From: a virus
Virus record (IMG/VR): IMGVR_UViG_3300021420_000017
Span: 82,651-146,650 of that record
Strand: one strand, 5' to 3'
Length of the DNA: 64,000 nt
A program made the position numbers and the translations under genes. How positions within the stretch are numbered: position 1 is the stretch's first letter; each line of letters starts with the position of its first letter. Shown piece after piece: positions 16,006 through 31,964 of the stretch. The notes under the pieces were generated by a model that searched no databases, had not been told where the DNA came from, and worked only from the letters and a program-made list of their open reading frames with translations.

Positions 16006-18528
16006 GTGTTTCGTGTGTTCGGTTCAGCCCAAGTGCTGTCCGTGGCGCGGGGTCAGATCCCGATGTCCAAGAGTGCCCACCGAGTGTCGTTCGACTTCGT
16101 CCCCAAAGAGGGGATGGTCTATGTCCGATCTCGTGCAATTAGTTCAAGATGTAATGATAACTTCGATTACTTCGGCCCTGACGATATTGCGAAGTCTTAC
16201 CAGACTTTCATTGGTAAGCCGGTTTTCGTCAACCATGTGAACTCAGATCACCGGCGCGCGCGAGGCCTCATTATCGATGCCGCGCTGCACCGGGACATCA
16301 ACCCCGATGGTTCGCCCGACACCTGGGCCGAAGTGCTCATGGAGATCGACGCACTCACCTACCCCAAGCTGGGTAAGGCCCTCCTGTCTGGCGCGATCGA
16401 TCGCACCTCGATGGGGACAGACGTCCAGATCTCTAAGTGCTCGATCTGTCACAACGAGGCCACCAACCCGTTGGAATACTGCCTGCATATACCCTCCAAA
16501 AAGGGTAAAAGAATACTAACTCTCGATCCAGTTACAGGACGCAGAGAAGACAAATTGGTCTATGAGATCTGTATCGGGTTGAACTTCTTCGAGAACTCCC
16601 TGCTCGTTGAGCCCCCTGCGGATCCGACGGCTTTCCGACTTGGGCAGGTTGTGGTAGGCCCAGGGCTAGAGCACCTGGGCAGCTTCTCTCATACGGCATC
16701 GGTCGCAGACCCCACTCGTATTACCCCGGTTCAGGTCGAGTTGCTGAAGCAGGCGGCCGAGGAGCGTCCGGCGTACATCTGGGGCTCTTCGGCCAAGCCC
16801 ACCCGTCCGTTGCTCGTCACTGGTGGGCTCTATGGCCATTACTCGACCCCGCTTGTCTGGGATCTGCTCAAGCAGGCCCAGCTAGAAATCAAGGCTGCGA
16901 ATTGGCAAAATGAATTGGGGCTCGACATGCAGCGATCGGCTTATGGCGAGACCAAAGCCCCGACCGACGTCGATACCCTTCGCGATGAGAGCTGCCCGGT
17001 CTGCGGGAACGACACCGCCTACGCGGGCCGAGAGTGCCAAGTCTGTGGGTATGTGTCTCCCCCCAAGGTCTTCGGCGACCCTGACGTCGACAAGGCCAAG
17101 CAGCTCGACACCCTCAAGCAGGATATCGATGACGACCTCGACACAGTGGATCCCTCCCGCAATGGGGCACCGATCGGGGATGCGGTCGGCGACGAGGAAT
17201 CCGCGCTAGAAGGCGATGACCCGGCTAGCCCGGACCTGGAGTGCACCAACTGTGGAACCGGGATCCGCCCGGCAGTCCCACAGACCTCCGACTCAGACCC
17301 CGGCGACGACGCGGCGGCCACTGGTCCGACCGAGGGCGATCCGTGCCCGGTCTGCGGAAAGGGCGAGCTGGCGGCCAGCTCGACATCGCCAGATTCGCAA
17401 GCCAAAGACGATGAAGAAGATCCCGACGCGGATCCGGACGACGAGGACCAGCAGCCCGGCGAGGAAGACGCCGAAGACAGCACCGCGATAGGAGACGGGA
17501 AACTCCCTGCCTCGAAGAATGCTCGGGCTCCGAAGTACCGAGAGCACCACTCATCAATCCGCCACAGTGAAGGGGTCCCAGTAGCCATGGCGCCACGACC
17601 AGTACTCGCCGCGATGATCGAGCAGCAGAAGATCATCGACAACCAGCAGGCCTATATCGCCTCCCTCATGCAGCGCGATGCCGAACGAGAGAACGCCCTG
17701 GCTTCGCAGGCAACCAAGATTCAGCGCCTGACGGCGGGCCTGACCGTGCTGGCCAACCACCTGGGCCCGGAAGTTCTGGGACAGGTCAAGGTCGCCATGA
17801 TCCGCAAGCGCGCGGATGAGCAGAACCCGGCTCAGCCGGTGCCGGAACCGGCTCCTGTGCCTCCGAGTCAGACCACCCTCGATGCCAAGACGCCGGAGGC
17901 ATTCGCCGACGTCACCGCGCCGGGCATGGTGCCCGGGAGCAACCAGGATGTGGCGGCCGATGCGGTCTCCACCGCCTACACCCCGGGCACGGACATTCCC
18001 TCCCCCGGGGTCAAGCAGCTCGTGGATGTCACCGCCCCGGTGGATGGCACTCAGGGACCGCGCCCGATCAACGAGACGCGCACCGAGGTCAATGTGCGTA
18101 CCGGCAACCCGATGAACCCGCAGGTGGCCTACCCGGTCAACGGCCCGTTCGCCCAGACCCAGCGCACCAGTTCGATCGACTCCGACTCGAACCTGCGCCA
18201 GATGGCTTCCATCCGCCTCGCCCGACTCCGCATTGCGGCTGGAATCGCCCCCGAGGGAGAAGACGACCTGAGCCTGGGTGCCCGGATCGCGAGTAACAGC
18301 GATCTGAGCATGGAACTGATCAACGTCGAGACCGCCACCCTCAACAACGTCACTCAAGCCGCCAGTCGCAAGCAGGGGTCTGCGAATGCCCCTCGGGGAC
18401 TGGTTCCCCGTTCGGCCGGTCTGCAGCGCACGGTGCCCGCCATGGGTTCCGCGACCCCGCTTTCCGCGTCCGCCTCGACCACCAGCAATGACGACGAAGA
18501 CCTTGCTGCCGCACTGGCTTTCGGCTGA
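16006..18528 (+). CDS. Prohead (capsid maturation) protease fused to Zn-ribbon/acidic linker and scaffolding domain
   Basis: FIGKPVFVNH (His) ... TSMG (Ser) ... FFENSLLVEPPADPTA, typical of HK97/herpes-fold prohead serine proteases; directly upstream of decoration and MCP genes; C-terminal coiled coil. Confidence 0.8.
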   Translation: MFRVFGSAQVLSVARGQIPMSKSAHRVSFDFVPKEGMVYVRSRAISSRCNDNFDYFGPDDIAKSYQTFIGKPVFVNHVNSDHRRARGLIIDAALHRDINPDGSPDTWAEVLMEIDALTYPKLGKALLSGAIDRTSMGTDVQISKCSICHNEATNPLEYCLHIPSKKGKRILTLDPVTGRREDKLVYEICIGLNFFENSLLVEPPADPTAFRLGQVVVGPGLEHLGSFSHTASVADPTRITPVQVELLKQAAEERPAYIWGSSAKPTRPLLVTGGLYGHYSTPLVWDLLKQAQLEIKAANWQNELGLDMQRSAYGETKAPTDVDTLRDESCPVCGNDTAYAGRECQVCGYVSPPKVFGDPDVDKAKQLDTLKQDIDDDLDTVDPSRNGAPIGDAVGDEESALEGDDPASPDLECTNCGTGIRPAVPQTSDSDPGDDAAATGPTEGDPCPVCGKGELAASSTSPDSQAKDDEEDPDADPDDEDQQPGEEDAEDSTAIGDGKLPASKNARAPKYREHHSSIRHSEGVPVAMAPRPVLAAMIEQQKIIDNQQAYIASLMQRDAERENALASQATKIQRLTAGLTVLANHLGPEVLGQVKVAMIRKRADEQNPAQPVPEPAPVPPSQTTLDAKTPEAFADVTAPGMVPGSNQDVAADAVSTAYTPGTDIPSPGVKQLVDVTAPVDGTQGPRPINETRTEVNVRTGNPMNPQVAYPVNGPFAQTQRTSSIDSDSNLRQMASIRLARLRIAAGIAPEGEDDLSLGARIASNSDLSMELINVETATLNNVTQAASRKQGSANAPRGLVPRSAGLQRTVPAMGSATPLSASASTTSNDDEDLAAALAFG
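17507..17541 (+). promoter_or_regulatory. Intragenic late-promoter-like motif
   Basis: CTGCC-N19-CGAAGTACCGA inside the protease gene, upstream of GAAGGGG and in-frame ATG 17587. Confidence 0.45.
17587..18528 (+). CDS. Putative nested scaffolding protein (313 aa, in frame with protease)
   Basis: In-frame ATG with GAAGGGG 11 nt upstream; begins with a coiled coil (MIEQQKIIDNQQAYIASL..). Confidence 0.5.
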   Translation: MAPRPVLAAMIEQQKIIDNQQAYIASLMQRDAERENALASQATKIQRLTAGLTVLANHLGPEVLGQVKVAMIRKRADEQNPAQPVPEPAPVPPSQTTLDAKTPEAFADVTAPGMVPGSNQDVAADAVSTAYTPGTDIPSPGVKQLVDVTAPVDGTQGPRPINETRTEVNVRTGNPMNPQVAYPVNGPFAQTQRTSSIDSDSNLRQMASIRLARLRIAAGIAPEGEDDLSLGARIASNSDLSMELINVETATLNNVTQAASRKQGSANAPRGLVPRSAGLQRTVPAMGSATPLSASASTTSNDDEDLAAALAFG

Positions 18529-19211: not shown

Positions 19212-20186
19212 ATGACCACCACGATGGTCCCCCAGGGCATCAAGCCGCCGATGTCGTCTGACGACTATGTGAGCGCGATCTTGGCCCGCCACGAGGGCAA
19301 GAAGGCCTCCTCGTCCAGCAAGCTGACCGCCATCGCGCGAGTGCTCGCTGATGAGGTCAGCGGCTTCAAGCGCCTGGGCGTCGGCATGATCGGCCCGATC
19401 CAGCTCAAGCTGCGCTACCAGGGCATCACCCGCAACGTGCTGGTCGAGGACCCGGTGACCCCGGGCACCCCGGTCGAGTACGACGTGTGGGACGACCTGG
19501 GCCAGGCGTACGTGCTCTCGGGCCACGACGGCGAAGTCAATATCACGATCTTCGAAGGCAAGCGTGTGCGGGTCGACTTCTTCCGGATCGCGGCTCAGGC
19601 CCAGATCCGCAAGGAAGACCTGATGTACCTGCGCATCAACGCCGTCGAGCAGGCCCAGGACGAGACCAAGCAGTCGATCCTCAAGCAGGAGGACTCCCGG
19701 CTGATGGTCGTGCTCCAGGGCGCGCTGAACGACTACAGCACCCGCCCGGATCACACGATCACCCCCAACCACACCATCACCGAGACCTCGGGTTACTTCA
19801 CCCCGACCTCGCTGTACACGGCGGTGGCCCAGACCGACATGCACGAGCTGGTCGCCAGCCGCATGCTGGTCAACCCCTATGACTACCGGGACTTCTTCCG
19901 GTGGGACATCAACACGACTGGTTGGGCCTTCAAGGACCGGGTCGTCGCGGGTGAGACCATCACCAGCTTCGGTGAGTTCCAGTTCCAGCGCTCGATCATG
20001 GTTCCGCAGAAGACCATGTACCTGCTGCCCGAGCCGAACTTCCTCGGTGTCTTCCCCGTCCTCTACAGCCTGGACGTTGAAGAGAACCACGTGGTGGATC
20101 GCTTCATGCGGGGATGGGTGTTCGATGAGATGGTTGCACAAATTGTGCTAAATCCTCGTGGAATAGCAGCAGTCGTAAAGCCCTAA
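19212..20186 (+). CDS. Major capsid protein (HK97 fold, 324 aa)
   Basis: AGGAG RBS; very high GC3; position after protease/decoration; GPIQLKLRYQGITRNVLVED and LNPRG motifs recall Bxz1-type MCPs (recalled, not searched); followed by a terminator. Confidence 0.88.
   Translation: MTTTMVPQGIKPPMSSDDYVSAILARHEGKKASSSSKLTAIARVLADEVSGFKRLGVGMIGPIQLKLRYQGITRNVLVEDPVTPGTPVEYDVWDDLGQAYVLSGHDGEVNITIFEGKRVRVDFFRIAAQAQIRKEDLMYLRINAVEQAQDETKQSILKQEDSRLMVVLQGALNDYSTRPDHTITPNHTITETSGYFTPTSLYTAVAQTDMHELVASRMLVNPYDYRDFFRWDINTTGWAFKDRVVAGETITSFGEFQFQRSIMVPQKTMYLLPEPNFLGVFPVLYSLDVEENHVVDRFMRGWVFDEMVAQIVLNPRGIAAVVKP
20069..20134 (+). repeat. 66-bp inverted repeat, left copy (inside MCP coding sequence)
   Basis: CCTGGACGTTGAAGAG...TTCGATGAGATGGT is the exact reverse complement of 22458-22523. 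Confidence 0.97.
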
Positions 20187-20225
20187 ACTACCATCTCATG
20201 AAATCGTAGCACAGTAAGATACAGA

Positions 20226-20266
20226 CAACAAGAGCCCCACGCCATCGCGGCGTGGGGCTCTTGTTG
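20226..20266. terminator. Bidirectional intrinsic terminator
   Basis: 18-bp perfect stem CAACAAGAGCCCCACGCC / GGCGTGGGGCTCTTGTTG between convergent genes. Confidence 0.85.
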
Positions 20267-20283
20267 TTGCGTCGATCCATAGG

Positions 20284-20727
20284 CTATCTCGTCACGTATT
20301 CGCAGTCCTTCTCGGTGAAGTCGCTGCGCAGTCCGGCAAGATACTCGCCCAGGAAATATGTAGCGGAATCATGAGTCTTGTCTTGCTCGACTAGTTTTTC
20401 CAACTCTTCCAGGATCTGGGTGGCCGTACTGGAGGTCAGAACCAACAACCTGACCCCAGTTGAGGCGAACCACTCCCAAGACAACAAGTCGAATGTCGTT
20501 GGCTGCCGTTCTTCGTCTACGACATCGAGAGCCAATCCCGACTCTGGAATCCAGAGTGAGGGAGAATAGGATCCGCGCACGCTAAAAGTTCGATCAATCC
20601 AACTCACAGGCGCATTTCGGTAAGTATCCACCTCATGCTGCGCGAGTGTGCATGCTTGAATCCAATCGCGAGGGTCGGTCAGCGTACTGATTACGTGAGT
20701 CGGATAATACTGTTGGTCCTTGATCAT
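20284..20727 (-). CDS. Degenerate PD-(D/E)XK-fold protein (147 aa), probably an inactive paralogue of the adjacent nuclease
   Basis: YSPSLWIPESGLALDVV aligns with YDPDFWLPQYEVAVETK of the neighbour; ATGA overlap with the upstream stop. Confidence 0.55.
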   Translation of the reverse strand: MIKDQQYYPTHVISTLTDPRDWIQACTLAQHEVDTYRNAPVSWIDRTFSVRGSYSPSLWIPESGLALDVVDEERQPTTFDLLSWEWFASTGVRLLVLTSSTATQILEELEKLVEQDKTHDSATYFLGEYLAGLRSDFTEKDCEYVTR

Positions 20728-21416
20728 CGGTTACGCTCCTGAGCTATAAGTGATTGAATAGACTCGCTGAAGTTTTCTCCTGATAGTTTCCGTAAGTCTT
20801 CTTTGAATAAGACGACCAGTAAACGACCAGTTGCTCTATAGGCAGCCCATTGAGCGTGCATGTTGGCTCGTGGTACTCCCTTAGTCTCTACCGCTACCTC
20901 ATACTGAGGGAGCCAAAAGTCGGGATCGTAGTTAGACAGATCGTTGGATTTATCCCAGGGAATCAGGAAGCGCTCATCGAATCGCTCTATTCGAACTTTG
21001 GATATTTTGGCTAGTCCCCAAAATAGCGCCTCGTAGGAAGACTGAAGCACGATAACATGCTCAGTCTGATCATCGATGGTCTTGATGTTTTGGTGCACTT
21101 TCAGTCCACGTCGAGCACATGCCTGATTGTGGAACTGCCGATGAGAAGAGGCTCGGTGTTCGAACTCAATGCCACACCACCCACACTTTGAGGTGGTCCA
21201 TTTCGATTCGTCTCGCTGGCGCCTGACCGAGGCCGCTCTCCGGCATTCATGACTGTGGTAGAGACGATTGGCCGCAGAGACAGGTTTGTCGCAGGCGGGG
21301 TTGGCGCATTTGGGTCGAGGTTGATCTACCCGGCGCGCGCGATTGTTTCCTCCGTGATGATTCCTAGAGATCTGGGGGACGGGTAGTGGCTTAGCTGCCC
21401 AGTTGTCGTCACTCAT
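20724..21416 (-). CDS. Zn-finger plus PD-(D/E)XK endonuclease (230 aa)
   Basis: CANPAC..HSHEC and CGWC..HNQAC; SSYE..YDPDFWLP..VETKG matches the T7 endonuclease I/TnsA-like catalytic pattern. Confidence 0.8.
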   Translation of the reverse strand: MSDDNWAAKPLPVPQISRNHHGGNNRARRVDQPRPKCANPACDKPVSAANRLYHSHECRRAASVRRQRDESKWTTSKCGWCGIEFEHRASSHRQFHNQACARRGLKVHQNIKTIDDQTEHVIVLQSSYEALFWGLAKISKVRIERFDERFLIPWDKSNDLSNYDPDFWLPQYEVAVETKGVPRANMHAQWAAYRATGRLLVVLFKEDLRKLSGENFSESIQSLIAQERNR

Positions 21417-22345
21417 GCTCTGGGCTTCCTTCCAGGAGAGCGAACTTGGCGTCCTTCAGCCACGAGCCACCCACGCACCGTCTGATAGGACCTCCCTAGG
21501 GTGTCGCAGACATCGGAAAGGGTCATACCCATGTCGAAATAGCGAACTGCCTCAGCAGCTTGTTCGCGGTCGCGGAGATAAATCCCTCCCTCGGTAGTGA
21601 TTCCACGTTCTTCAATAATCTTGCGCACGGCATCTTGGGAGATATTAAGTTCTTTAGCAACTTCTACTATAGTATTACCTTTAAGGTACGACTCGGCGAT
21701 CTCGTCCGATCTATCTGGTTTAAGACGAGCAGGGCGCTCCTTGTTGATGGGGGTCAGCCCTAGCTCTCGTAGCCATATCTCTGCGGTTCCGTAGTGGATT
21801 CCCAGTTGGGTCGCGATATCGAAGGCAGCTATCCCCGCATGATGAAGAGCGATGACGTTGGGGAGAAGGGAGGGCTTTTTCCCGATTTTGCGTCCTCCGA
21901 CTTGGAACCGGAACCCCTCCTTGGCGAGCCACCGACTGACGGAGTCCGGGGTAAATCCGAATCGATCCGCGATGGACTCGCGAGATTCCCCTGCCCGAGC
22001 GGCCTTGAGCATTGTTGGAATGGCATCCTCACGACGGCGTTGATCCTCGGAGTAAGCCGTGAGGCCTTCTTGCCTGAGCCAACGACTCAGAGTCGTGTAG
22101 GGCACGTTGATCTCGTCTGCGATCTCGGGTGCAGTCCTCTTCTTCGCAATGAGAGTTTGGATCAGCGGGAGATGCTGGCGCTTAGCGCTGCGCTTGGCCG
22201 CAGTGAGAGACAGACCCGCCTCTTTGAGGAGTATTCTGACACGATATGCCGGAATCTCTGCGGAGACTGAGATCTCTTCGGCGTTCGCCCCTTGGTGGTG
22301 CGCTCTGACGATGTAGCTCAGGAGATCAGGGCTGATAGGATCCAC
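21413..22345 (-). CDS. Six-repeat helix-turn-helix DNA-binding protein (about 310 aa)
   Basis: Six HTH units of about 48 aa (e.g. EIADEINVPYTTLSRWLRQEG, SIADRFGFTPDSVSRWLAKEG) with basic linkers; GTG 22345 has AGGAAGG 7 nt upstream (ORF track starts at TTG 22381). Confidence 0.8.
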   Translation of the reverse strand: MDPISPDLLSYIVRAHHQGANAEEISVSAEIPAYRVRILLKEAGLSLTAAKRSAKRQHLPLIQTLIAKKRTAPEIADEINVPYTTLSRWLRQEGLTAYSEDQRRREDAIPTMLKAARAGESRESIADRFGFTPDSVSRWLAKEGFRFQVGGRKIGKKPSLLPNVIALHHAGIAAFDIATQLGIHYGTAEIWLRELGLTPINKERPARLKPDRSDEIAESYLKGNTIVEVAKELNISQDAVRKIIEERGITTEGGIYLRDREQAAEAVRYFDMGMTLSDVCDTLGRSYQTVRGWLVAEGRQVRSPGRKPRA

Positions 22346-22385
22346 AATGAAGCCTTCCTGTTGGTGCTGGTGTCTCGACAACCCC

Positions 22386-22415
22386 AGTCTTCAGGAAGGT
22401 TTCCCTATTTGTCAA
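22386..22415 (-). promoter_or_regulatory. Possible host sigma70-type promoter for the HTH/nuclease operon
   Basis: Perfect TTGACA (22415-22410); -10 only AAGACT at an 18-nt spacer. Confidence 0.35.
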
Positions 22416-22457
22416 ATCGAGTAGGAACTCATCCCACTGTTAATAGCGATTCGGAAG

Positions 22458-22523
22458 ACCATCTCATCGAACACCCATCCCCGCATGAAGCGATCCACCA
22501 CGTGGTTCTCTTCAACGTCCAGG
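22458..22523 (-). repeat. 66-bp inverted repeat, right copy (intergenic copy of MCP sequence)
   Basis: Exact reverse complement of 20069-20134; identity stops abruptly at both ends. Confidence 0.97.
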
Positions 22524-22549
22524 GAGCCCCAAAGGAGATGCTATGACCC

Positions 22550-22867
22550 ATGAAACCGACGTTGAGCCCCGACGGCGACTGGAAGGAGGGAGAGGAGTTC
22601 GACTACCCCGACGACAACACCTCGGCTGACTGCGGAGGCTGCGATCAGCACTGGCAAGTGCATGATCACATGAAGTGGATCGCTGACGGCTGCGCGACAC
22701 TGAAGGATGTCATCGCGCATGTGGAGGCCTTCGCGGCTCACCTATGGGCGCGCAAGGAGGCTGGCTACGAGCTTGCGGATCTGGTGGACAACGGTCACAT
22801 CATCTACAAGCAGTTCGAGGATGATCCCCGGGAAGAGCAGTTTCGGGTCGAGCGCAGCGCTAGCTGA
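22550..22867 (+). CDS. Hypothetical acidic protein (105 aa)
   Basis: AAGGAG upstream; high GC3; followed by a terminator. Confidence 0.65.
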   Translation: MKPTLSPDGDWKEGEEFDYPDDNTSADCGGCDQHWQVHDHMKWIADGCATLKDVIAHVEAFAAHLWARKEAGYELADLVDNGHIIYKQFEDDPREEQFRVERSAS

Positions 22868-22923
22868 GAAGGTCTGGCGCTGCTAGAGTCCGTCTCGGGC
22901 CTACCCAGGCTTCGACCCTTAGC

Positions 22924-22966
22924 CCAAGACCGGGACCTCTCCTTCGCGGAGGGGTCCCGGTCTTGG
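22924..22966 (+). terminator. Intrinsic terminator
   Basis: Stem CCAAGACCGGGACCTCTCC / GGAGGGGTCCCGGTCTTGG followed by TTTG. Confidence 0.75.
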
Positions 22967-23094
22967 TTTGTCTCCCCGACAGGATCCGTCCGAGACGATA
23001 GCGCTTCATCCATGGTCGGACGAGATCGTAGGCATAGCGTCTTGTGTGACACCTGGATGACTTTGACCCTTTAGGCGCCGGTAGGATGCGCGGT

Positions 23095-23595
23095 ATGAGC
23101 ACCCCCGTCCTCACTCCAGGTCAGTACGTCACGGTGCCCGGCAGCGGCTTCGTCTGCTGGTGCATCCGAAAGATCACCCGATCCCCGGTGGCGCATGCCT
23201 TCCTCTACGTGGGCCCGCAGGCCGACGGGACCGACATGGTGGAGGCTGAGCCCGGCGGGGTGCGCTTCGGCCGCACGAGCGACTACCCGGTGCGCTATGT
23301 CTCTGGGCGAGTGCTGGATCCAGCGGTCGCGAAGGCGATTGCGGAGACCGGGATCGCGATGGCGAGCAAGGACACTGACTACAACTTCCTGGCGGACTTC
23401 TATCTCGGGCTGCGCGAGGGTGCGCGACTACCTGTTCCCCAGACTCTGTTCCGGCTCGCCTCGACCGGTAAACACGTCGAGTGCGCGCAGCTTGTCGATT
23501 ACGCATACCTCGTAAATGGGGCACATCTCTTCGAGGACGGGCGCTCGCCCGGCGCTGTCTCCCCGGGCGACCTGTGGCGGTTGGACTACCACTGA
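23095..23595 (+). CDS. Permuted papain-like NlpC/P60 amidase (YiiX/YaeF family-like)
   Basis: SPVAHAFLYVG (His) precedes VECAQLVDYAY (Cys) and ends SPGDL, the circularly permuted order; TAGGAT -10 box 7 nt before ATG 23095. Confidence 0.75.
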   Translation: MSTPVLTPGQYVTVPGSGFVCWCIRKITRSPVAHAFLYVGPQADGTDMVEAEPGGVRFGRTSDYPVRYVSGRVLDPAVAKAIAETGIAMASKDTDYNFLADFYLGLREGARLPVPQTLFRLASTGKHVECAQLVDYAYLVNGAHLFEDGRSPGAVSPGDLWRLDYH

Positions 23596-23617
23596 CCTGC
23601 TCCGCGCGGGATGGATG

Positions 23618-23653
23618 CTGCCCTCCGCGCCGCTGGAGCCCCTGAAGTAGTGA
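23618..23653 (+). promoter_or_regulatory. Putative phage late promoter
   Basis: CTGCC-N20-TGAAGTAGTGA. Confidence 0.65.
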
Positions 23654-23723
23654 AGAGGACTCTGCCTCGTGATGCGGGTCTTCTTCGGGTCGGTGCTCAA
23701 CTCAACCAGCGCGGAGCTGAACT

Positions 23724-24398
23724 GTGACGGCTGATTTCAAGCAGGGCGCCTCTCTTCTCGGAGGCGTGCTGGCCTCGGGGTGCGTGAATCCCACCTATGC
23801 CTGCGCTTTCACTGGCTCTCCGACCGGTGGCACCTTCACCGTATCCATCACCACCGGGATCGGTGGTGTCTCAAATACTCAGTCCACCGGGGCGATCACC
23901 TACTCCGCGAGCCTGACAGCGGCCTCGATTCAGGCCACGGTGCAGGCACTGCCCGGGATGTCGAGCGTCATGGTGACGGGCCCCAACGGCGGCCCTTTCA
24001 CGTTCACCATCCCGAACTCGCTGGGCGTGTCGACAGTGTCGATCTCGGCGCAGGCCCTGACCGGTGGATCCACTCCTTCGGCCGCGATCACGAGCAATGG
24101 GGTTTCGACCTTGCTCTACGCGGTCCCCGTCGCCTCAGCCGTCAAGGTCGCGACATTCTACGTCAGCGCGGCGGCCGGGCAGGCAGGCTACCTATCGATC
24201 TCCGTGATCCCCAATGGGGGCGCGCAAGACGGAACTCACGTTGCCGTTCCGGGCTACCCACTCGTGGCCTACGACTTCCTGAGTCAGGAGGACGTCCTGT
24301 CCGTCGTTAAGGGCGCGATGTGGGATGCCGGGACCCAGTTGTATCTCTACTGCCCGGCCGCCGTCACCTATGGTCTCACCGGGGCGGTGTCGTCCTAG
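23724..24398 (+). CDS. Virion structural protein, beta-rich (224 aa)
   Basis: Thr/Ser/Gly-rich; first gene after the late motif. Confidence 0.65.
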   Translation: MTADFKQGASLLGGVLASGCVNPTYACAFTGSPTGGTFTVSITTGIGGVSNTQSTGAITYSASLTAASIQATVQALPGMSSVMVTGPNGGPFTFTIPNSLGVSTVSISAQALTGGSTPSAAITSNGVSTLLYAVPVASAVKVATFYVSAAAGQAGYLSISVIPNGGAQDGTHVAVPGYPLVAYDFLSQEDVLSVVKGAMWDAGTQLYLYCPAAVTYGLTGAVSS

Positions 24399-26470
24399 TG
24401 CCCGGCTTTTCCGCTCTGAATAAGCGCACGCCGCGCACCAACCCGGCCGACGCTCGCTATGACGCCAACGGGGCAGCGTCCGCAGCGATTGCATCCTCTG
24501 CACAGAAGGCCAATAACGGGTCAGACTTCGCGGACCCCGGATCGACCCGATCGAACCTACAAGTTCCGATGCTCGGTCCATGCAAAGCCGTCGCGACAGC
24601 AAATATCACCCTGTCGGGAACGCAGGTAGTCGACGGCTATGCGGCAGGGGTCGGAGACCAGATTCTCGCGAGCGCGCAGACACTGGGCGCCCAGAATGGC
24701 CCCTGGGTGGTCGCTACCGGGGCCTGGACTCGTCCCACTGATTATGCGAGCGGTTCGGTCATCAAGGGGCGCATGCTCCAGGTCAACACTGGCTCAACAG
24801 CCAACATCGGTCTCTGGACGATGTTGGCTTCTACCTCGGTGACAGTCGATACCACAGCCACGACGTGGGTTCCAGCAGGTCAGGCGCGCAACGATGCAAG
24901 GTACGACGTGGCTGGCGCCGCTGCCACGGCGCAGACAGCAGCGCAGGCGTACACGGACTCTGAAACGACACGGGCGCAGACAGCAGAGCTGCTGGCAGCC
25001 AAGAAGTCCGCAAACCTTTCTGACCTGACAAGCACCTCGACGGCGAGAGCCAACATCAGCGCGGCCAAGTCGGGTGTGAACAGTGACATCACCAGTCTGA
25101 CGGGGCTCACGACCCCGTTGGCGGTCTCCGAGGGCGGCACGGGCAGCGCCTCCCAGAACTTCGTTGATCTCTCGACAGCCCAGACGGTTGCGGGTGTCAA
25201 GACGTTCTCCAGCGCGCCGGTGGTTCCTGCCGCCTCGTTCCCCGAGTCGGCCGTCACCGGCTTGGTTGCCGACCTCGCGGCCAAGGCACCACTTGCCTCT
25301 CCCACTTTCACCGGGACGGTCACTACTCCTGTCCCGGTCAACGCGACCGACGCCGCGACGAAGGCCTATGTCGACTCGGTTGCCGCCGGATTATCAACGA
25401 AGGCATCATGTCGTGTCGCTACGACCGCCTCGCTTCCGGCCAACACCTATGCGAGCGGAGTACTGACTGCTAATGCCTTTGGAGCTTTGACGGTCGATAC
25501 GGTTGCCGTTTCGGTTGGCGACAGAATTAACGTCAAGAATGAAACGGCCCAGGCTAACAACGGGCTGTATGTGGTCACTGCGACGGGGAGTGCGGGAGCG
25601 ACCTATGTGCTTACCCGCACCTCGGACATGAACACCGGGGCGCAGATCCCGGGTGCCTTCGTCTTCATTGAGCAGGGATCTGCGAACAGCAGTTCTGGTT
25701 GGGTGGTCGGCGCCGCCGGTCCCTACACGCTCGGAACGACAGCCATCATTTGGACCCAGTTTTCCGGTGCCGGTGAGATCACTGTCGACTCGACCCTCAC
25801 CGAGGCAGGTAACCAGATCTCTCGCTCGGCGATCACAGGTGACGTCTCAGTCCCTGCTGGATCAAACGTGGCAACGCTGGCCACAGCAAACGCCAATACG
25901 GGCTCCTTCGGCACGGCATCTCAGGTCCCGACGCTGACGCTGGATGGCAAGGGGCGGACGACGGCAGCAGCCAACACGTCGATCCAGATCGCGGAATCCC
26001 AGGTCACTGGACTGACTGCCGACTTGGCCGCGCGGAGTACCACTTTAGTTCTTAAGCCCGTGCAAACGGCCTCATTTACTGCAGTGGTAGGGAATATCTA
26101 CCCGATTAATGCCAACAACGCTGTGATAGTCACGCTCCCCACCGCTCCTGCGGACAAGTCGATCGTTCAGTTCAAGGTCACTATCGGATCCACTGTCGGG
26201 TTGCCCACCGGTGGCCAACTCAATAATCCGGTTATTTACAACACCGGTGGCTCAGATGTCATCAATGTGGCTGGTGGCGTTACCACTGGGCATTTATATC
26301 TGTTAGACCAGGCCGTTACCCTTCAATATGATCAGACGACCGCCGTCTGGATAGCTACCGGTGACGATTTACCGCTCGCTCAGCTCGATGCCCGCTATGG
26401 GCCTTCGACTCTTGATGGGGGCGCCCCGGGCGTACCAAATACTGACACCTACGACGGAGGGGCACCATGA
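24398..26470 (+). CDS. Fibre-like virion protein (about 690 aa)
   Basis: GTG overlapping the upstream TAG; fibre motifs (DAATKAYVD, GSFGTASQVPTLTLDGKGR, NLSDL..ARANI); ends with two DGGAP motifs. Confidence 0.75.
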   Translation: MPGFSALNKRTPRTNPADARYDANGAASAAIASSAQKANNGSDFADPGSTRSNLQVPMLGPCKAVATANITLSGTQVVDGYAAGVGDQILASAQTLGAQNGPWVVATGAWTRPTDYASGSVIKGRMLQVNTGSTANIGLWTMLASTSVTVDTTATTWVPAGQARNDARYDVAGAAATAQTAAQAYTDSETTRAQTAELLAAKKSANLSDLTSTSTARANISAAKSGVNSDITSLTGLTTPLAVSEGGTGSASQNFVDLSTAQTVAGVKTFSSAPVVPAASFPESAVTGLVADLAAKAPLASPTFTGTVTTPVPVNATDAATKAYVDSVAAGLSTKASCRVATTASLPANTYASGVLTANAFGALTVDTVAVSVGDRINVKNETAQANNGLYVVTATGSAGATYVLTRTSDMNTGAQIPGAFVFIEQGSANSSSGWVVGAAGPYTLGTTAIIWTQFSGAGEITVDSTLTEAGNQISRSAITGDVSVPAGSNVATLATANANTGSFGTASQVPTLTLDGKGRTTAAANTSIQIAESQVTGLTADLAARSTTLVLKPVQTASFTAVVGNIYPINANNAVIVTLPTAPADKSIVQFKVTIGSTVGLPTGGQLNNPVIYNTGGSDVINVAGGVTTGHLYLLDQAVTLQYDQTTAVWIATGDDLPLAQLDARYGPSTLDGGAPGVPNTDTYDGGAP
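24504..24540 (+). repeat. 37-bp exact direct repeat at the start of an approximately 360-bp diverged duplication
   Basis: AGAAGGCCAATAACGGGTCAGACTTCGCGGACCCCGG, also at 29296-29332. Confidence 0.9.
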
Positions 26471-26973
26471 GCACGTTGCTCGGCGACATCCTGATGAAGC
26501 GTGGAACTGCAGCACAGTGGACTGCCGCCAACGACGTTCTCCGTGCCAGCGAGCATGGATATGAGACAGATACCCACAAGCAAAAGATCGGCGATGGCAC
26601 CACTGCGTGGAACTCACTGGCTTACACTTCCGGGCCAGGCCTTTGGTCGCTGCTGATCGAGAATGTCAATGCGGTCGCGACATCCGGTGCTGCGGTGACC
26701 ATTCCCGACGTCACTGTCGCCACGCTCAACCGCGTGGTGTTGACCGCCAACTGCACTCTGACGTTTCCTACTGCTGCTGCGGGTAAGACTTTTCTGATCG
26801 CTCTCGTTCAGGACGGGACCGGTTCTCGGACCGCGACCTGGCCGAGCACAGTGAAGTGGCCTTCCGGGACCACGCCGACGCTGACGGCGACGGCAAACAA
26901 GACCGACCTGTTTTCGTTCTCCTGCTTGGATGGAACGAACTGGCTATCCTTGGTTGTCGGCCAGGCGTTCTAA
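26467..26973 (+). CDS. Minor virion protein with Mtd-N/hyaluronidase-like N-terminal anchor domain (168 aa)
   Basis: MKRGTAAQWTAANDVL..GYETDT.K.KIGDG motif; C-terminal LVQDGTGSRTATWP domain shared with 31251. Confidence 0.7.
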   Translation: MSTLLGDILMKRGTAAQWTAANDVLRASEHGYETDTHKQKIGDGTTAWNSLAYTSGPGLWSLLIENVNAVATSGAAVTIPDVTVATLNRVVLTANCTLTFPTAAAGKTFLIALVQDGTGSRTATWPSTVKWPSGTTPTLTATANKTDLFSFSCLDGTNWLSLVVGQAF

Positions 26974-27632
26974 TGCGAGCTTCGCATCTCGTCCTGTGTC
27001 AACCTCCTCCCAGTGGAGGTAGCGGTATTGCTGTACGCAGTTTCGCATTAGCCCACACCATTGCTATCGGTCAGGGCCCGGCTATCACGTCAGCCACATA
27101 TAATGGCGGCGTTACTCCGGTGGCGGGCGATTTGCTGATTGCGTTTGTTAGTATTCGAGACGCTGGTGGTTTAGGCGAGGCTGGTCCGATTAATACGCCC
27201 ACCAACTGGACTGCGCGGGGTCATATCGATACTTCGCCGGATAACTTCTCGTTAGCGATGTTCAGCAGGATAGCGACTGCGACGAGTGCCGATAACATTA
27301 CACCCGCCAGTTCTACTGATGCGGACTTCGAGGATGACTACGACGTCGCGGTTATTGCAGTGAAGAACACAGCGGGAGTAAGTGGCACCCCACCCACTCC
27401 AGTGAATAGTAGCACCGCGCCATCTACGGGATCTGTAGGAGATCTTCTTATTGGAGGCTGGTTTCAATATCCCGCAGGGTCAAACACGGGACTTCCTGGG
27501 TCCATGACTCAGATCGTGTCCGATAATACTGACGACCCACAGCTCTCAGTTGGATACGAGCTGCTTGCCAGTCCTGGGACACGAACTGGGACTGGCACAT
27601 ACGCGGCAGTCATCGCGGCAGCCCACCTCTGA
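26973..27632 (+). CDS. Virion protein, beta-rich (219 aa)
   Basis: TAATG overlap gives ATG 26973; Thr/Ser/Gly-rich. Confidence 0.6.
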   Translation: MRASHLVLCQPPPSGGSGIAVRSFALAHTIAIGQGPAITSATYNGGVTPVAGDLLIAFVSIRDAGGLGEAGPINTPTNWTARGHIDTSPDNFSLAMFSRIATATSADNITPASSTDADFEDDYDVAVIAVKNTAGVSGTPPTPVNSSTAPSTGSVGDLLIGGWFQYPAGSNTGLPGSMTQIVSDNTDDPQLSVGYELLASPGTRTGTGTYAAVIAAAHL

Positions 27633-27647
27633 TGAGGAGCCGGTGAT

Positions 27648-29108
27648 ATGGCTACGCTAGTTGATGGAGGAGCCCCGTCGGGGGCTAGCACATCCGACAC
27701 CATCAGCGGCGGCCCCGACAATGACGTCACACTGCCCATCGCGCAGACCGACGTCACGGGGCTCGTCGCAGCGCTGGGGGCCAAGGCGGACGCGACGGCC
27801 ACTACGACAGCTCTGGCCGCGAAGGCGAATGAGACCGAGCTGGCTGCCTACGTCAAGACGATCAATCATGCCTCTCCTGATGGCTCAGGCGACGTGGAAG
27901 TGGTCATACCGTCAGCCACGGGAGTGGTCCCTTATCACAATCACAACCACCTCGTAGAGCCTCTGGGGGTTGTTAAACACACTGCATCGATGTTGGCGGC
28001 CGAGTTCACGATCACTCAAGGCTTGAACGTCTTCATCGTGAATGCCAACTCGACATTCACCATCGAGGCCCCGCAGTTCGCCGACTCGGAATACAGTCCG
28101 ACCAGTGGCGCCCGTACACCCTTCGGGTCGGCCGGACCCGAGTGGTACTCCACTGCCGCCGGTGGGAGCCAGTTCGGCGCGTTCCCGTTCGAGACGCGGC
28201 ATATCATCGACGTCGCCGTGATCCAGGATGACGTCGGCGGTCATAGCGTCACGTTCCAGAACCTTTTCGAGGGTGCGCCCGTGGCGCTGACCACCGGCGC
28301 GACCTACCCCGGTCCGGCAACCACTACTGCGAATGCTGTTTCATTTTGGCGATTCACTTGGTATGGGCTCCCTCTTGGTTGGGTGCGCGACCTCCTCGGT
28401 GATGGTGCCGCAATGACGATAAAGCCTCTGCCATCATCGACATCCACCTATATCCGAGGCCACTACGTCAGCACGTGCAGTGCTGCTGACGCCACAGCTA
28501 TCGTTACCAACCTCAAGATGATCCCGCTGAACGCCAGGAAGGTTCTCTACGCGGCGGGCCTATACGCCGAACTTGCGCCGGGCAACCAGTCCCCGAGTTT
28601 GATCTGCATCCATAGCGGCGATCTGCCGGGAAGTCGATCTCAAACAGGTTCCCGACCTCTGACCAGCTTCACCCGGCTCGTGTCTCCAAATGGCAGCGGT
28701 GTCGGTGCGGCCTCTTGGACAAACAACGTCAATCCCGTGCTACATGAGTCTGGCCACGCACTGGACTTCATCCTCTATCGCAATGGCGTACCGGTCAGCG
28801 GGACGACGTACTACCGTGTGGGCGATGATCCGAGATTCATCTCTTTGTACAATACCTGTGTTCCTCGTTCTTGGACTGGACGCAACGACTACTACCTCGT
28901 TGACAATGCCTTCTCAGCCGGGGGGATCGGCAAGAATGAGTGGATGGCCCAGATGCTGGGCTGTTACACGTACTATTTGTATCTGACGAACAACTCGTTA
29001 TCGGACGCGACTCTCCTCGAAACCGAGTGGAGTGGCGCAGCGCCGGACGACATCATCGCCACCTTCAAAACGACCGCAGCCTCAGCGTTATCAGCATGGT
29101 TGTCGTAG
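27648..29108 (+). CDS. Fibre-like protein with C-terminal zinc metallopeptidase domain (486 aa)
   Basis: GAGGAG RBS; YVKTINHASPDGSGDV fibre motif; VLHESGHALD (28743-28757) with distal NEWMAQ, an anthrax-lethal-factor/Pro-Pro-endopeptidase-like pattern. Confidence 0.7.
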   Translation: MATLVDGGAPSGASTSDTISGGPDNDVTLPIAQTDVTGLVAALGAKADATATTTALAAKANETELAAYVKTINHASPDGSGDVEVVIPSATGVVPYHNHNHLVEPLGVVKHTASMLAAEFTITQGLNVFIVNANSTFTIEAPQFADSEYSPTSGARTPFGSAGPEWYSTAAGGSQFGAFPFETRHIIDVAVIQDDVGGHSVTFQNLFEGAPVALTTGATYPGPATTTANAVSFWRFTWYGLPLGWVRDLLGDGAAMTIKPLPSSTSTYIRGHYVSTCSAADATAIVTNLKMIPLNARKVLYAAGLYAELAPGNQSPSLICIHSGDLPGSRSQTGSRPLTSFTRLVSPNGSGVGAASWTNNVNPVLHESGHALDFILYRNGVPVSGTTYYRVGDDPRFISLYNTCVPRSWTGRNDYYLVDNAFSAGGIGKNEWMAQMLGCYTYYLYLTNNSLSDATLLETEWSGAAPDDIIATFKTTAASALSAWLS

Positions 29109-29162
29109 CTCATCCGCGATGTGGCGTCGATCGTTTGTCCCGGCATATAGAAAGAGGTTGAT

Positions 29163-30476
29163 ATGGCTACGTTGGCCGATGGAGGCGCTCCCTCGGGAGT
29201 AAGCATCTCAGATTCCATCATCACGACGGCCCTGGTCGCGAAGGCTGATCTCGTTGGCGGGATAGTGCCCGAGACGGAACTGGCGGGGTATGCGAAGAAG
29301 GCCAATAACGGGTCAGACTTCGCGGACCCCGGGTCAGTGCGGGCGAACCTGAATGAGCCGGTGCTCGGCTCATGTCAGGCCGTCGCGACAGCAAATATCA
29401 CCTTGTCGGGAACGCAGACGATTGATGGTTACGCGGCTGTCGCAGGAGATCGCATCCTTGCCACTGCGCAGACCACGGGCTCGCAAAACGGCCCCTGGCT
29501 AGTCGCTTCAGGAGCCTGGACTCGTCCTACTGACTATGCGAGCAGTGCGGTCGTGACTGGTCGCACCGTCCAGGTGCGCACGGGCTCGGCTTCGAATATC
29601 GGCCTGTGGACATTGCTCACCTCAACATCTGTGACGGTCGACACGACAGCGACCACGTGGTCGCTGGCTGGCCGAGCAGCAGGCGATGCGAGGTACGTCA
29701 TAGGTCTAGCGGGGGCTGCCGTCATTACGACCTCGGCGACGCCTGTTGGCGGGAAGAAGAACTCTTACAATGCCTCGGGCGGCTCACTCACTCCAAGCCT
29801 GCCTGCCCTATCGGGATTGTCGGCTGGTCCGACCGAGTATTACGTTGAGAAAAGTATTGCAGACACCAGTGCAAATACCATTACCTTTGTGTGTGCCGGT
29901 GCGGACACTTTTGATTACAGCCCAACTGCGACCAGTCTTCAGCTCGTTGAGCCCAGTGAATGGTATGTGTTAGTGGTCGTATCGATTAGTGGCACGAAGT
30001 ATTGGTCTATCAAAGGGATGGGGGCGGGCCGGTTTCTGAACGACGCGCGGTATGCATCTGGGACGCTTCTGGCCACGGCAACTGGCGCCACTGGTTCTGG
30101 GTCGCTGACATCGACGTCGACTAACTACGTTGTCGGGAGTAGCGCGGTCACAATAGTGCTTGCGTCACAGCGGCGCCTGCGGATCGCGGTTAACGCGCTG
30201 ATCATCCCGGGCTCGTCTACCCCGGGTACTTATACCGTCTTCCCGGCCTACAACTCAGGGGGGTACAACCTCGCCGGAGCAGGTCAAGTGGGTTCTTGGG
30301 GTGCGCAGGGGAGCACGACTAACAACCAGGGAATAACCATCTCTAAGGAAGACAACATTCTGTTGTCGGCCGGTACTTATACGTTTTATCCGATAATCCA
30401 GCGGCTGTCGGGCGGGTCTACGACAGATACAGCGAACTACGGTTACGTTGCCGTCTACGATGCAGGGCCATCGTAA
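29163..30476 (+). CDS. Fibre-like virion protein (437 aa)
   Basis: GAGG RBS; shares an approximately 120-aa module with the 24398 gene; N-terminal DGGAP. Confidence 0.72.
   Translation: MATLADGGAPSGVSISDSIITTALVAKADLVGGIVPETELAGYAKKANNGSDFADPGSVRANLNEPVLGSCQAVATANITLSGTQTIDGYAAVAGDRILATAQTTGSQNGPWLVASGAWTRPTDYASSAVVTGRTVQVRTGSASNIGLWTLLTSTSVTVDTTATTWSLAGRAAGDARYVIGLAGAAVITTSATPVGGKKNSYNASGGSLTPSLPALSGLSAGPTEYYVEKSIADTSANTITFVCAGADTFDYSPTATSLQLVEPSEWYVLVVVSISGTKYWSIKGMGAGRFLNDARYASGTLLATATGATGSGSLTSTSTNYVVGSSAVTIVLASQRRLRIAVNALIIPGSSTPGTYTVFPAYNSGGYNLAGAGQVGSWGAQGSTTNNQGITISKEDNILLSAGTYTFYPIIQRLSGGSTTDTANYGYVAVYDAGPS
29296..29332 (+). repeat. 37-bp exact direct repeat, second copy
   Basis: Identical to 24504-24540. 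Confidence 0.9.
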
Positions 30477-30501
30477 CGGGATGATCCATCGATCCGACCA
30501 C

Positions 30502-30529
30502 TTGATACTCGCCTCGATCTTGGTAGGTT
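30502..30529 (+). promoter_or_regulatory. Host sigma70/SigA-like promoter, leaderless
   Basis: TTGATA-N16-TAGGTT, ATG 6 nt after the -10 box, no RBS. Confidence 0.5.
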
Positions 30530-30535
30530 CGGTTC

Positions 30536-31159
30536 ATGAGAAAAGACCCTGATACCCCGATCTACAGTCCTAATGCGGTAGAGATCCGCGATGGTGCGGT
30601 GCACTACCACTTCGCGGATAAGGATCTGCAGAGCTACATGGAGACCAACTACGGCTTCGTGTGGGACCCGGATCACGACTGCGGGCCCAACCTCTACACC
30701 GGCGTTCATCACTATGGGGCCTACGTAGCCAAGGCGAGCTGGATGCCGGACGGAAGTCTGCATATTGGCATCAACCAGGGCATCCGGGCCTGGCACAACA
30801 CTCAGCCGGAGTTGGTTCGGCAAGACGAACTCGCCAAGGAGAAGGCCACCAACGCCAAAGTCCTCGGGATCGGCATCTGGCAGACCATCGGCTTCATCGC
30901 CTTCCTGATCGCGATGGGCACAAGCAGTCATGCGGATACGAACTTCGCCCCAATCTTCATCATCGGGTGGATCATCTGGATCTTCCTGGGCTTCCTCCCG
31001 GTGATCATCAACTACGAGCCCAAGAGTGAGCTGGGCAAGTTCATTCACGAGATCAGTCCCTATATCGGGGCCGCGATCGTGGCCAAGCACGTCTACGATC
31101 GCCACGAGAAGAGGCAGGCCGAGCAGATCGCGGACGCGGTCCGAAGGGGACTCCTCTAA
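30536..31159 (+). CDS. Membrane protein with 2-3 TM segments (207 aa), moron-like
   Basis: Soluble N-terminal domain, then IWQTIGFIAFLIAMG and FAPIFIIGWIIWIFLGFLPVII; own promoter. Confidence 0.75.
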   Translation: MRKDPDTPIYSPNAVEIRDGAVHYHFADKDLQSYMETNYGFVWDPDHDCGPNLYTGVHHYGAYVAKASWMPDGSLHIGINQGIRAWHNTQPELVRQDELAKEKATNAKVLGIGIWQTIGFIAFLIAMGTSSHADTNFAPIFIIGWIIWIFLGFLPVIINYEPKSELGKFIHEISPYIGAAIVAKHVYDRHEKRQAEQIADAVRRGLL

Positions 31160-31172
31160 CGGGCGACCGGCC

Positions 31173-31208
31173 CTGTCTCAGGCGGTCTTGCGGGACCTGA
31201 AGTAGTGA
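31173..31208 (+). promoter_or_regulatory. Putative phage late promoter
   Basis: CTGTC-N20-TGAAGTAGTGA. Confidence 0.65.
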
Positions 31209-31250
31209 GGGCCACTCCAGGCGGCCATCCACACACCTGAGAGGTTCATC

Positions 31251-31835
31251 GTGGGAAAGCAAGTTACCGTTTTGAGCGGTTTCACTGATGTCGCTCTGCC
31301 GAAGATCTACACGGTCCCGGTCTCCTCGGCGGTCGCGGGCACTCCTGCCCAGACGGTCCAGGTACTCGGCGTCGGCGGCTACAACGCGGGCGACACGGTG
31401 ACCCTGACCGACGCTGAGTATGCCGCGCTCTCGGCCGCCGTCACCCGGGCCCTGGGCAGCCCCACCACCGTGGCGCAGCCCTTCCGCCCCTCGGCCGATC
31501 CGACGTCCTCCAAGGCCACTGTGGCGGCCACCACGTCGGGCACCATCGCCCTGGCGCTGGGCTACAACATCGTAGGCCCGGTGACCGGAGCCACCGTGCT
31601 GACGCTGCCCGCTGCGGGTGCGGGCTGGACGGCGGGATCGCGCTCGACGGTCAGCGTCAAGATCACTCAGGACGCGACCGGCTCCCGGGCGATCACGCAC
31701 CCGACCGGGGTCCGCTGGTTCGGGGGATCTGCTCCCACTGCGACCACCACGGCCAGCAAGGCGGATTACTTCGAGTATTTCAGCGATGACGGTGGAGTGA
31801 CCGTGTACGGGCGAGTGCTCGGGCAGAGTGCCTGA
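31251..31835 (+). CDS. Virion protein (194 aa)
   Basis: GAGG RBS; N-terminal domain paralogous to 41360, C-terminal domain paralogous to 26467. Confidence 0.72.
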   Translation: MGKQVTVLSGFTDVALPKIYTVPVSSAVAGTPAQTVQVLGVGGYNAGDTVTLTDAEYAALSAAVTRALGSPTTVAQPFRPSADPTSSKATVAATTSGTIALALGYNIVGPVTGATVLTLPAAGAGWTAGSRSTVSVKITQDATGSRAITHPTGVRWFGGSAPTATTTASKADYFEYFSDDGGVTVYGRVLGQSA

Positions 31836-31847
31836 TTGATGTGAGCT

Positions 31848-31890
31848 AACAGCGCACCGAGGACTCCGCTCTGGTCCTCGGTGCGCTGTT
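31848..31890 (+). terminator. Intrinsic terminator
   Basis: 17-bp perfect stem AACAGCGCACCGAGGAC / GTCCTCGGTGCGCTGTT. Confidence 0.75.
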
Positions 31891-31899
31891 TCATCTGTC

Positions 31900-31935
31900 C
31901 TGTCTGAGTGATACCTGGGACAAGTGAAGTATCGA
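31900..31935 (+). promoter_or_regulatory. Putative late promoter (variant)
   Basis: CTGTC-N20-TGAAGTATCGA immediately after the terminator. Confidence 0.55.
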
Positions 31936-31964
31936 CAGCCTCCATCGTGAAGGGAACCACCGAC

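Follow-up and report, generated by a model that had tools for sequence, protein, structure and literature searches.

A putative homing endonuclease cassette bracketed by an inverted repeat of capsid coding sequence in a cluster-C-mycobacteriophage-like soil myovirus

The capsid gene, its inverted copy and the nuclease island

The sequence analyzed here (the window) is a stretch of 64,000 nucleotides, positions 82,651 to 146,650 of the virus record IMGVR_UViG_3300021420_000017, from a soil myovirus that resembles the cluster C mycobacteriophages. Its gene for the major capsid protein (MCP), located at 19212 to 20186 on the plus strand, encodes an HK97-type protein of 324 amino acids that matches phrog_2522 (major head protein, E value of 1e-94) up to the last residue. 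The protein shares 55 to 58% identity with the MCPs of cluster C mycobacteriophages (Myrna and Phabba) and up to 85% with those of its relatives in IMG/VR (80 contigs). The 3' part of this gene contains one arm of a perfect inverted repeat, and the segment between the two arms (20135 to 22457) holds an island of minus-strand genes that includes a nuclease gene.

A repeat search placed the arms at 20069 to 20134 (arm A, plus strand) and 22458 to 22523 (arm A', minus strand), each 66 nt long, 100% complementary and with a spacing of 2,323 nt. The exact reverse complement reported by the initial annotation was thereby confirmed (66 of 66 positions), and the 66-mer has only these two copies in the complete 146,650-bp record; a perfect match of this length far exceeds what can be expected by chance. 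Arm A covers MCP codons 287 to 308 (LDVEENHVVDRFMRGWVFDEMV), and the conserved core copied in relatives too makes up its 3' part. The description of the arm as MCP codons was right as to its location inside the gene but not as to the reading frame, since the arm is offset by one base from the codon register (the MCP codon CTG begins at 20070, and the last base of the arm is the second position of the Val codon at 20133 to 20135). Arm A' is intergenic, with orf322 of the island on one side and a divergent gene of 105 amino acids on the other. The repeat breaks off abruptly at either end, also in agreement with what had been described. Beyond 22457, neither the protein nor the DNA of the minus-strand continuation resembled MCP tails significantly: a hidden Markov model (HMM) comparison with 44 distinct tails gave no score, and in local DNA alignment 36% of shuffles scored equally high. 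On these two null results we rejected a decayed second MCP tail (V-FRIAINSGMSSYSI-stop) brought in with the cassette, and a likeness of the same continuation to a pseudo-copy in the related locus L019 was dismissed, as the strands are opposite. Such perfect identity together with sharp ends would indicate a recent duplication or gene conversion event.

Misassembly and amplification chimeras can yield inverted repeats, and a chimeric join at a short repeat would be the most trivial origin of the structure. We find this hardly credible. The same arrangement is present in a megahit k141 contig from ENA (L086), built with a k-mer longer than the repeat and 100% identical across 12.7 kb of the locus, and in a JGI contig of 244.6 kb with a gene order identical to that of the window. 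Logan unitigs from the DNA run end 30 nt into each arm, as expected of a k=31 graph, and their depth is even over the flanks and the cassette (16 to 18x) and twofold at the 66-mer (34.3x). In addition, the junction between arm A and the MCP tail is crossed by a contig from an RNA library of a different study. This soil metatranscriptome contig, 862 nt long and corresponding to 19375 to 20236 of the window, is 100% identical to the 3' half of the MCP gene and terminates in the terminator hairpin described below; the phage of the window, or a near-identical one, probably occurred in that second sample with its capsid mRNA being expressed.

The island differs in composition from its surroundings, with a GC content of about 0.50 (0.63 to 0.65 in the flanks) and a fraction of A/T-ending codons of 0.40 to 0.48 (0.12 in the MCP gene), which marks it as foreign. 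It is separated from the convergent MCP gene by a hairpin with a 20-bp stem (20225 to 20267), found by a terminator scan and serving both directions; the RNA contig ends inside it, at 20236. The first gene past the hairpin is orf147 (20284 to 20727, minus strand), a degenerate paralog of the nuclease domain that has lost the catalytic D and the ExK. Its similarity to the C-terminal domain of orf230 was detected by BLASTP (E value of 3e-4), with PS...DVV aligned to PD...ExK, and the search for homologs among 5.8 billion proteins found only orf147 itself. The next gene, orf230 (20724 to 21416, minus strand), combines a zinc ribbon region (Cys-rich motifs) with a C-terminal PD-(D/E)XK nuclease domain in which E129, D166 and E177-x-K179 are invariant in the alignment. 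Its sequence profile matches T7 endonuclease I (E value of 4.9e-5), and its structure model (mean predicted local distance difference test [pLDDT] of 77) resembles the folds of Vsr (Z score of 8.6), I-Bth0305I (7.8), TnsA (7.7) and VRR-NUC (7.6). Structural Z scores below 8 can reflect a common arrangement, and the Foldseek comparison with PDB gave weak rows (E value of 0.01 or worse). Taken together, orf230 looks like an endonuclease with intact catalytic residues, and we predict that it is site specific.

The third gene, orf322 (21413 to 22345, minus strand; 310 amino acids in the gene call, which starts at the GTG at 22345), encodes six helix-turn-helix (HTH) units of the HTH_23/HTH_28 type, recognized by Pfam and by alignment of the units, and is the counterpart of the N-terminal half of fused proteins found in relatives. 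Consecutive genes of the island overlap by ATGA (21413 to 21416 and 20724 to 20727). In two related loci, L094 and L102, the HTH and nuclease open reading frames (ORFs) form one fused protein that aligns over both window ORFs in two frames, the frame change falling in the linker. Since relatives carry them as a single chain, the HTH array and the nuclease are partners, and orf322 plus orf230 appear from this alignment to be the split form of the six-unit HTH-nuclease type. The split may be functional, giving two subunits, or a recent frameshift.

Upstream of orf322, a promoter-like motif at 22400 to 22419 on the minus strand (CGATTTGACAAATAG...) is conserved with the related loci L062 and L019 (GATTTGCAAA...), with a poor -10 region in the window. 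Its TTGACA hexamer (22415 to 22410, minus strand) lies 42 nt from arm A', the distance originally given, and lacks a matching -10; a consensus promoter scan of 20100 to 22700 called no promoter. At the other end of the island, 3 nt past the MCP stop codon, we found a short and older inverted copy of the MCP core (20190 to 20212, plus strand, starting with ACCATCTCAT) that aligns with the post-stop element of the six-HTH fusion loci L094 and L102. The 10 bp of ACCATCTCAT occur both at 20190 to 20199 and at 22458 to 22467 because the two inverted MCP copies share one end point. Reading this direct repeat as a target site duplication was rejected, since it is better explained as the start of the old inverted MCP copy common to L094 and L102. 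Domain scans upheld the earlier statement that no transposase or recombinase lies within the repeats: between the arms there are HTH domains and a PD-(D/E)XK nuclease and no transposase or recombinase catalytic domain, Pfam found transposase-type HTH motifs and no DDE, HUH or recombinase core, and no serine or tyrosine recombinase appeared when every ORF between 16006 and 23595 was scanned with Pfam and PHROG (a "DNA invertase" PHROG match spans only one HTH unit). An insertion sequence or transposon with terminal inverted repeats was discarded as an identity for the island, given the missing transposase core, the occurrence of homologs at a single site and the other explanation of ACCATCTCAT.

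The boundary of arm A coincides exactly with a change in the codon usage of the capsid gene. The last stretch of the MCP gene (20135 to 20186), which reads AQIVLNPRGIAAVVKP followed by the stop, matches relatives at the protein level, and 12 of its 16 codons end in A or T. The G+C content at third codon positions (GC3) drops here to 0.25, from 0.93 in the gene body; among relatives, tail GC3 is 0.72 in cassette carriers and 0.86 in cassette-free loci. The tail is silently recoded, with altered codons and the protein kept. Arm A itself, in which 6 of 22 codons end in A or T, compared with 7% of those in the gene body (P = 0.003), is intermediate in composition between the capsid gene and the island. 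The position where the recoding starts, at the DEMV codons, may be a break or crossover point. Within the tail, the LNPRG motif is invariant in about 90 relatives. Extensions of the MCP past the conserved tail were seen in L076 (6 residues) and L017 (36 residues).

Homologous cassettes and inverted capsid copies in relatives

Of the 80 IMG/VR relatives, 15 have homologs of the nuclease, of the HTH protein or of both directly 3' of the MCP gene; so do two further contigs from Logan (L088 and L089) and each of the 10 metagenome loci whose DNA reaches upstream. Overall, about 27 of roughly 90 related contigs carry an MCP-adjacent homolog, most often a single fused chain. Fused chains have either about 400 amino acids with four HTH units or about 550 amino acids with six (L094 and L102), in both cases followed by the zinc ribbon and PD-(D/E)XK parts, and the remaining loci have the nuclease alone or the nuclease with a single HTH. 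The cassettes of relatives are always on the MCP strand, whereas that of the window is on the opposite one. No closer relatives of the window's own cassette were found in IMG/VR, among the 5.8 billion proteins or in GenBank phages. An intact nuclease, foreign composition, an altered flank and patchy occurrence at a single site together make up the signature of a free-standing homing endonuclease, and we assign the island, from its sequence and distribution, to this class as a putative cassette behind the MCP gene. One of the four-HTH fusion genes (L037, 5887 to 6867) ends at 326 amino acids, in the middle of the nuclease domain, while its near-twin in L039 has 411; the shorter gene probably reflects either decay of a homing endonuclease or a frameshift introduced by sequencing.

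Copies of the 3' region of the MCP gene were sought downstream of the gene in every locus, all of them scored by one uniform scan. An inverted, diverged copy of the MCP codons FWKGWVFDEMV was found in nine of nine loci with a four-HTH-nuclease fusion (L008, L019, L024, L037, L039, L062, L088, L098 and L105), and the possibility that homologous cassettes lack a copy of their flanking gene is therefore not what we observed. Inverted-copy scores were 15 to 27 in these nine loci, at most 16 and mostly 12 or less in the 60 loci without a cassette, and at most 11 in the 14 loci with the nuclease only, so that none of the 74 loci without an HTH domain was counted as copy bearing. Scores for copies in direct orientation stayed at background in all loci. 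The copied segment corresponds to the 3' half of arm A; the copies are 27 to 61 nt long, have 68 to 91% identity and start 40 to 106 nt past the MCP stop, downstream of the terminator and ahead of the nuclease gene, where they abut -35-like (TTGAC-like) hexamers. In a multiple alignment, the copy is the sole conserved block of the spacer between the MCP and the fusion gene. Next to these, the copy in the window is unusual in being longer, perfect and placed differently. A look-alike of the target seems, from this comparison, to be a family trait of the HTH-bearing members.

The initial annotation had also raised the question whether the copies track the local MCP sequence. They do accompany the HTH-bearing cassettes, but no co-variation with the synonymous variants of their own MCP genes was found, and several of them share derived changes (GAC to GTA and TTC to TTA). 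Both observations mark the copies of relatives as ancient and under constraint, passed on with the cassette and not newly produced. The absence of co-variation also removes support, in these loci, for ongoing gene conversion and for a function that depends on pairing of RNA or of a DNA stem. The latter bears on a second model proposed at the outset, in which the copy is transcribed as an antisense or guide RNA that pairs with the capsid mRNA or DNA of the same phage or of a rival. If the plus strand of 22458 to 22523 were transcribed, for example as the 5' leader of the downstream plus-strand genes, the transcript would be perfectly complementary to the MCP mRNA over 66 nt. However, the promoter scan found no site on either strand around the copy, and the single conserved promoter motif is directed away from the copy, which lies upstream. 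The MCP RNA contig is unbranched through arm A, so the junctions of the second copy are absent from that library, which is weak evidence, and positions 22494 to 22800 are uncovered in the sole RNA library containing the phage, a gap that does not amount to silence because this library covered only the MCP part. We consider a guide or antisense role very improbable.

Look-alikes of the capsid core were also seen in two loci of other types. In L099 (156 to 230), which carries a single HTH, the terminator hairpin behind the MCP gene is made of two sequences resembling the MCP core, one inverted and one direct (TTCCGGAAGGGCGGGGT versus TTCTGGAAGGGCTGGGT), with a score of borderline significance. 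In L048 (4584 to 5226), a relative without the nuclease, there is a minus-strand HTH-like ORF 195 nt past the MCP stop; within its DNA, a stretch of 35 nt resembles the MCP codons ENH..F.KGWV in inverted orientation and gave the top score among cassette-free loci (16). This ORF may be another kind of capsid-linked element.

A different mark was observed in the Arg codon of the LNPRG motif. It is changed from CGN to AGA or AGG, a multi-base synonymous switch, in 14 of 17 carriers of the nuclease only or with a single HTH, compared with 14 of 63 cassette-free loci (L001, L002, L005, L007, L011, L025, L027, L073, L078, L089 and L097 to L104 are the loci concerned in this observation). The switch is probably a sign of where the nuclease-only and single-HTH forms recognize or cut the DNA, and in cassette-free loci it probably denotes resistant alleles. 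A Ser codon switch at YSLD showed no specificity for any cassette class.

In most relatives, the MCP gene is directly followed by a homolog of the gene found at 31908 to 32531 of the window, where 11.7 kb of other genes lie in between. This segment (20187 to 31907) is a hypervariable region of structural accessory genes, and besides the island it contains plus-strand genes with Ig-like/decoration, fiber-like and Mtd_N-type domains (24320 to 26470, 26467 to 26973, 29163 to 30476 and 31251 to 31835). On the other side, upstream of the decoration and capsid genes, 16006 to 18528 encodes a protein of 840 amino acids with a prohead-protease-like N-terminal region (phrog_18299 and phrog_2774) plus long additional domains; its relatives have 1,266 to 1,473 amino acids.

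Role and origin of the inverted copy

The co-occurrence of the copies with HTH domains, their position by promoter-like motifs and their conservation make the MCP core the predicted docking site of the HTH array. Our best reading of the copy is that of a putative binding site for this array, by analogy with the operator of I-TevI. The island as a whole would then be a homing endonuclease whose HTH array docks on the MCP core and the flipped copy a retained look-alike acting as a control or docking element, an interpretation to which we give about an even chance of being correct. Most likely, the array would dock on the highly conserved capsid codons FWKGWVFDEMV, in the 3' half of arm A, and the nuclease would cut nearby in phages with an unrecoded capsid tail. 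Repair would then copy the island into the cut phages, the carrier being shielded by its own silently rewritten tail. The flipped copy would be the window's version of the cis element that accompanies HTH-bearing members, upstream of the nuclease genes, and would probably hold the HTH array without being cut, limiting or timing the expression of the cassette in the style of the I-TevI operator. Both resident sites could escape cutting, arm A because its neighbor is recoded and arm A' because its neighbor is unrelated. As for its perfection, the 66-nt copy most likely arose recently, when the cassette was rearranged onto the opposite strand and sequence was copied or converted between the element and the capsid gene. 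A simple inversion of a layout like that of relatives does not give the order found in the window.

The proposal of an operator mimicking the recognition site, made in the initial annotation, gains from the relatives, in which every four-HTH fusion keeps an inverted copy by a -35-like hexamer and loci without an HTH do not. The persistence of the short old copy in the window, as in L094 and L102, also counts in favor of docking. The ratio of copy length to HTH units, about 11 bp per unit for 66 nt and six units, with about 34 to 41 nt for four units, is suggestive, although the cases are too few and the 66-nt match to six units is a single one. Several features of the window weigh against docking. 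A gap of 42 nt separates the copy from the -35-like box downstream, leaving no overlap between the two, no consensus promoter was found, and the orientation of the copy relative to the cassette is opposite to that in relatives. The closest architectures, the six-HTH fusions L094 and L102, have only the short post-stop remnant and no long copy. Perfect identity and sharp ends fit a recent accident and are not required for protein binding, and the roles of the copy in protein binding, cleavage and expression are predictions from sequence. Finally, the nine copy-bearing relatives partly share ancestry and represent fewer than nine independent observations.

Some of these features would be expected if the perfect copy were a functionless scar, left over from the recombination or repair event by which the cassette was brought in or inverted, and not yet decayed. 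It could have been produced by ectopic gene conversion, or by fold-back or template-switch synthesis where the nuclease had broken the DNA at the DEMV codons. The copy in the window is 100% identical with abrupt ends, while those of relatives have 68 to 91% identity; the end of the arm is the start of the recoded tail, as for a break or crossover point; the nearest architecture (L094 and L102) has no long copy; and the inversion of the cassette relative to every relative means that a rearrangement did happen. On the other hand, the same MCP segment has been copied in inverted orientation in nine cassette lineages, whose proteins have diverged to 25 to 47% identity, as the sole conserved intergenic block. 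Neutral DNA would have been erased over such divergence, so at least the older copies are maintained, and an accident leaves the restriction of the copies to HTH-bearing enzymes unexplained. A scar is possible and deserves serious consideration, but we hold it to be rather unlikely.

The opposite strand of the cassette could also be one state of a switch, as was suggested at the outset. Homologous recombination between the 66-bp arms would invert 20135 to 22457, the strong capsid promoter would then drive the nuclease, and frequent flipping would keep the arms identical, at the cost of an altered capsid tail (DEMV-FRIAINSGMSSYSI). Perfect inverted repeats of 66 bp suffice for phage recombination. 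The flipped form would restore the orientation of all relatives, with MCP, HTH and nuclease genes on one strand, and the MCP frame would stay open for 14 codons, up to a TGA stop that overlaps the TTGACA box; moreover, the arms are perfect, whereas copies elsewhere have decayed. Nevertheless, no invertase or recombinase was found in or near the segment by the Pfam and PHROG scans, and the flip would remove LNPRG in exchange for an alternative tail without significant similarity to MCP tails. Two assemblies and the RNA contig show a single orientation, with the limit that all k-mers up to k=67 are common to the two isomers and the Logan contigs examined were k=31. We regard such a switch as improbable. 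Quite improbable, too, is an elaboration in which a flipped minority of genome copies supplies the nuclease against rival phages, driven by the strong late capsid promoter behind a truncated capsid gene, and an unflipped majority in the same cell makes the capsids with quiet nuclease genes, the flipping again keeping the arms identical.

If docking is correct, the locus and its relatives define a family of homing endonucleases (HTH array, zinc ribbons and PD-(D/E)XK domain) targeting the capsid gene in large actinobacterial phages. Where the look-alike is the binding site, the target of the enzyme could be read straight from the genome, a specificity code of about one HTH unit per 10 to 11 bp would become testable with arrays of four and six, and self-control of the I-TevI kind would extend to an unrelated, free-standing class of enzymes. 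The window is the extreme case, with a perfect copy bracketing the cassette, and offers the best substrate for work on binding, cleavage and inversion. Should the copy prove to be nothing more than a scar, the locus would nonetheless preserve the trace of a recent rearrangement, linked to a nuclease, where an essential gene ends.

Comparison with known systems

The closest precedent for a control element of this kind is I-TevI of phage T4. Its operator resembles the homing site (15 of 20 positions) and is bound just as well, yet cleavage there is reduced about 100-fold, and the promoter of the enzyme is repressed through it (PMC2988022). This autorepression, together with putative operators of I-TevII and I-TevIII, was described by Edgell et al. 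in 2004 and is reviewed in PMC2988022. Both systems have a modular nuclease with a separate DNA-binding part and a look-alike of the homing site near the enzyme's own promoter. In I-TevI no cleavable sequence lies at the proper distance in the look-alike, which is therefore bound and left uncut, and the same is predicted for the window by analogy. The enzymes belong to unrelated families, since I-TevI is a GIY-YIG nuclease encoded in an intron and that of the window a free-standing HTH array with a PD-(D/E)XK domain. Their sites differ as well, the T4 operator being about 20 bp long, matching at 15 of 20 positions and overlapping the promoter, while the copy in the window is inverted, matches at 66 of 66 positions and lies 42 nt from the -35-like box. 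Furthermore, in the window the copy and the real site together bracket the cassette.

As to location and mode of life, homing endonuclease genes commonly cluster beside capsid genes (PMC10448857). The enzymes SegF, SegG and MobE of T4-like phages (PMC2988022, PMC10448857) share with the island a nuclease gene between conserved essential genes, sporadic distribution, foreign composition, an altered flanking target and the capsid neighborhood. They differ in being GIY-YIG or HNH enzymes, and the same two sources describe no long inverted copy of a neighboring gene. In fold, the nearest homing endonuclease is the Vsr-like I-Bth0305I (PDB 3r3p), which also has a PD-(D/E)XK domain and a separate N-terminal DNA-binding region (root mean square deviation of 4.0 over 91 residues at the Z score of 7.8 given above). 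Its identity to orf230 is 12%, it is associated with introns or inteins and it has neither an HTH array nor zinc ribbons; the motif in the window is the classical PD...ExK, and orf230 is at most a candidate member of that family.

The Gin, Hin and Cin segments and the shufflons resemble the locus in their geometry, with a gene-bearing segment between inverted repeats, one arm in a structural gene and an inversion that alters the C terminus. In contrast to them, the window has no site-specific recombinase, its arms are 66 bp of plain coding sequence instead of short crossover sites, and the alternative C terminus lacks the conserved motif.

The initial annotation had presented the locus as an unusual selfish or phage-versus-phage system, a view that these comparisons weaken, since a homing endonuclease behind a capsid gene is an ordinary element and a homing-site mimic used as an operator has its precedent in I-TevI. 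What the locus and its relatives add to the known systems is the enzyme family, the systematic link between inverted copies and HTH arrays, and the perfect form of the copy that brackets the cassette in the window.

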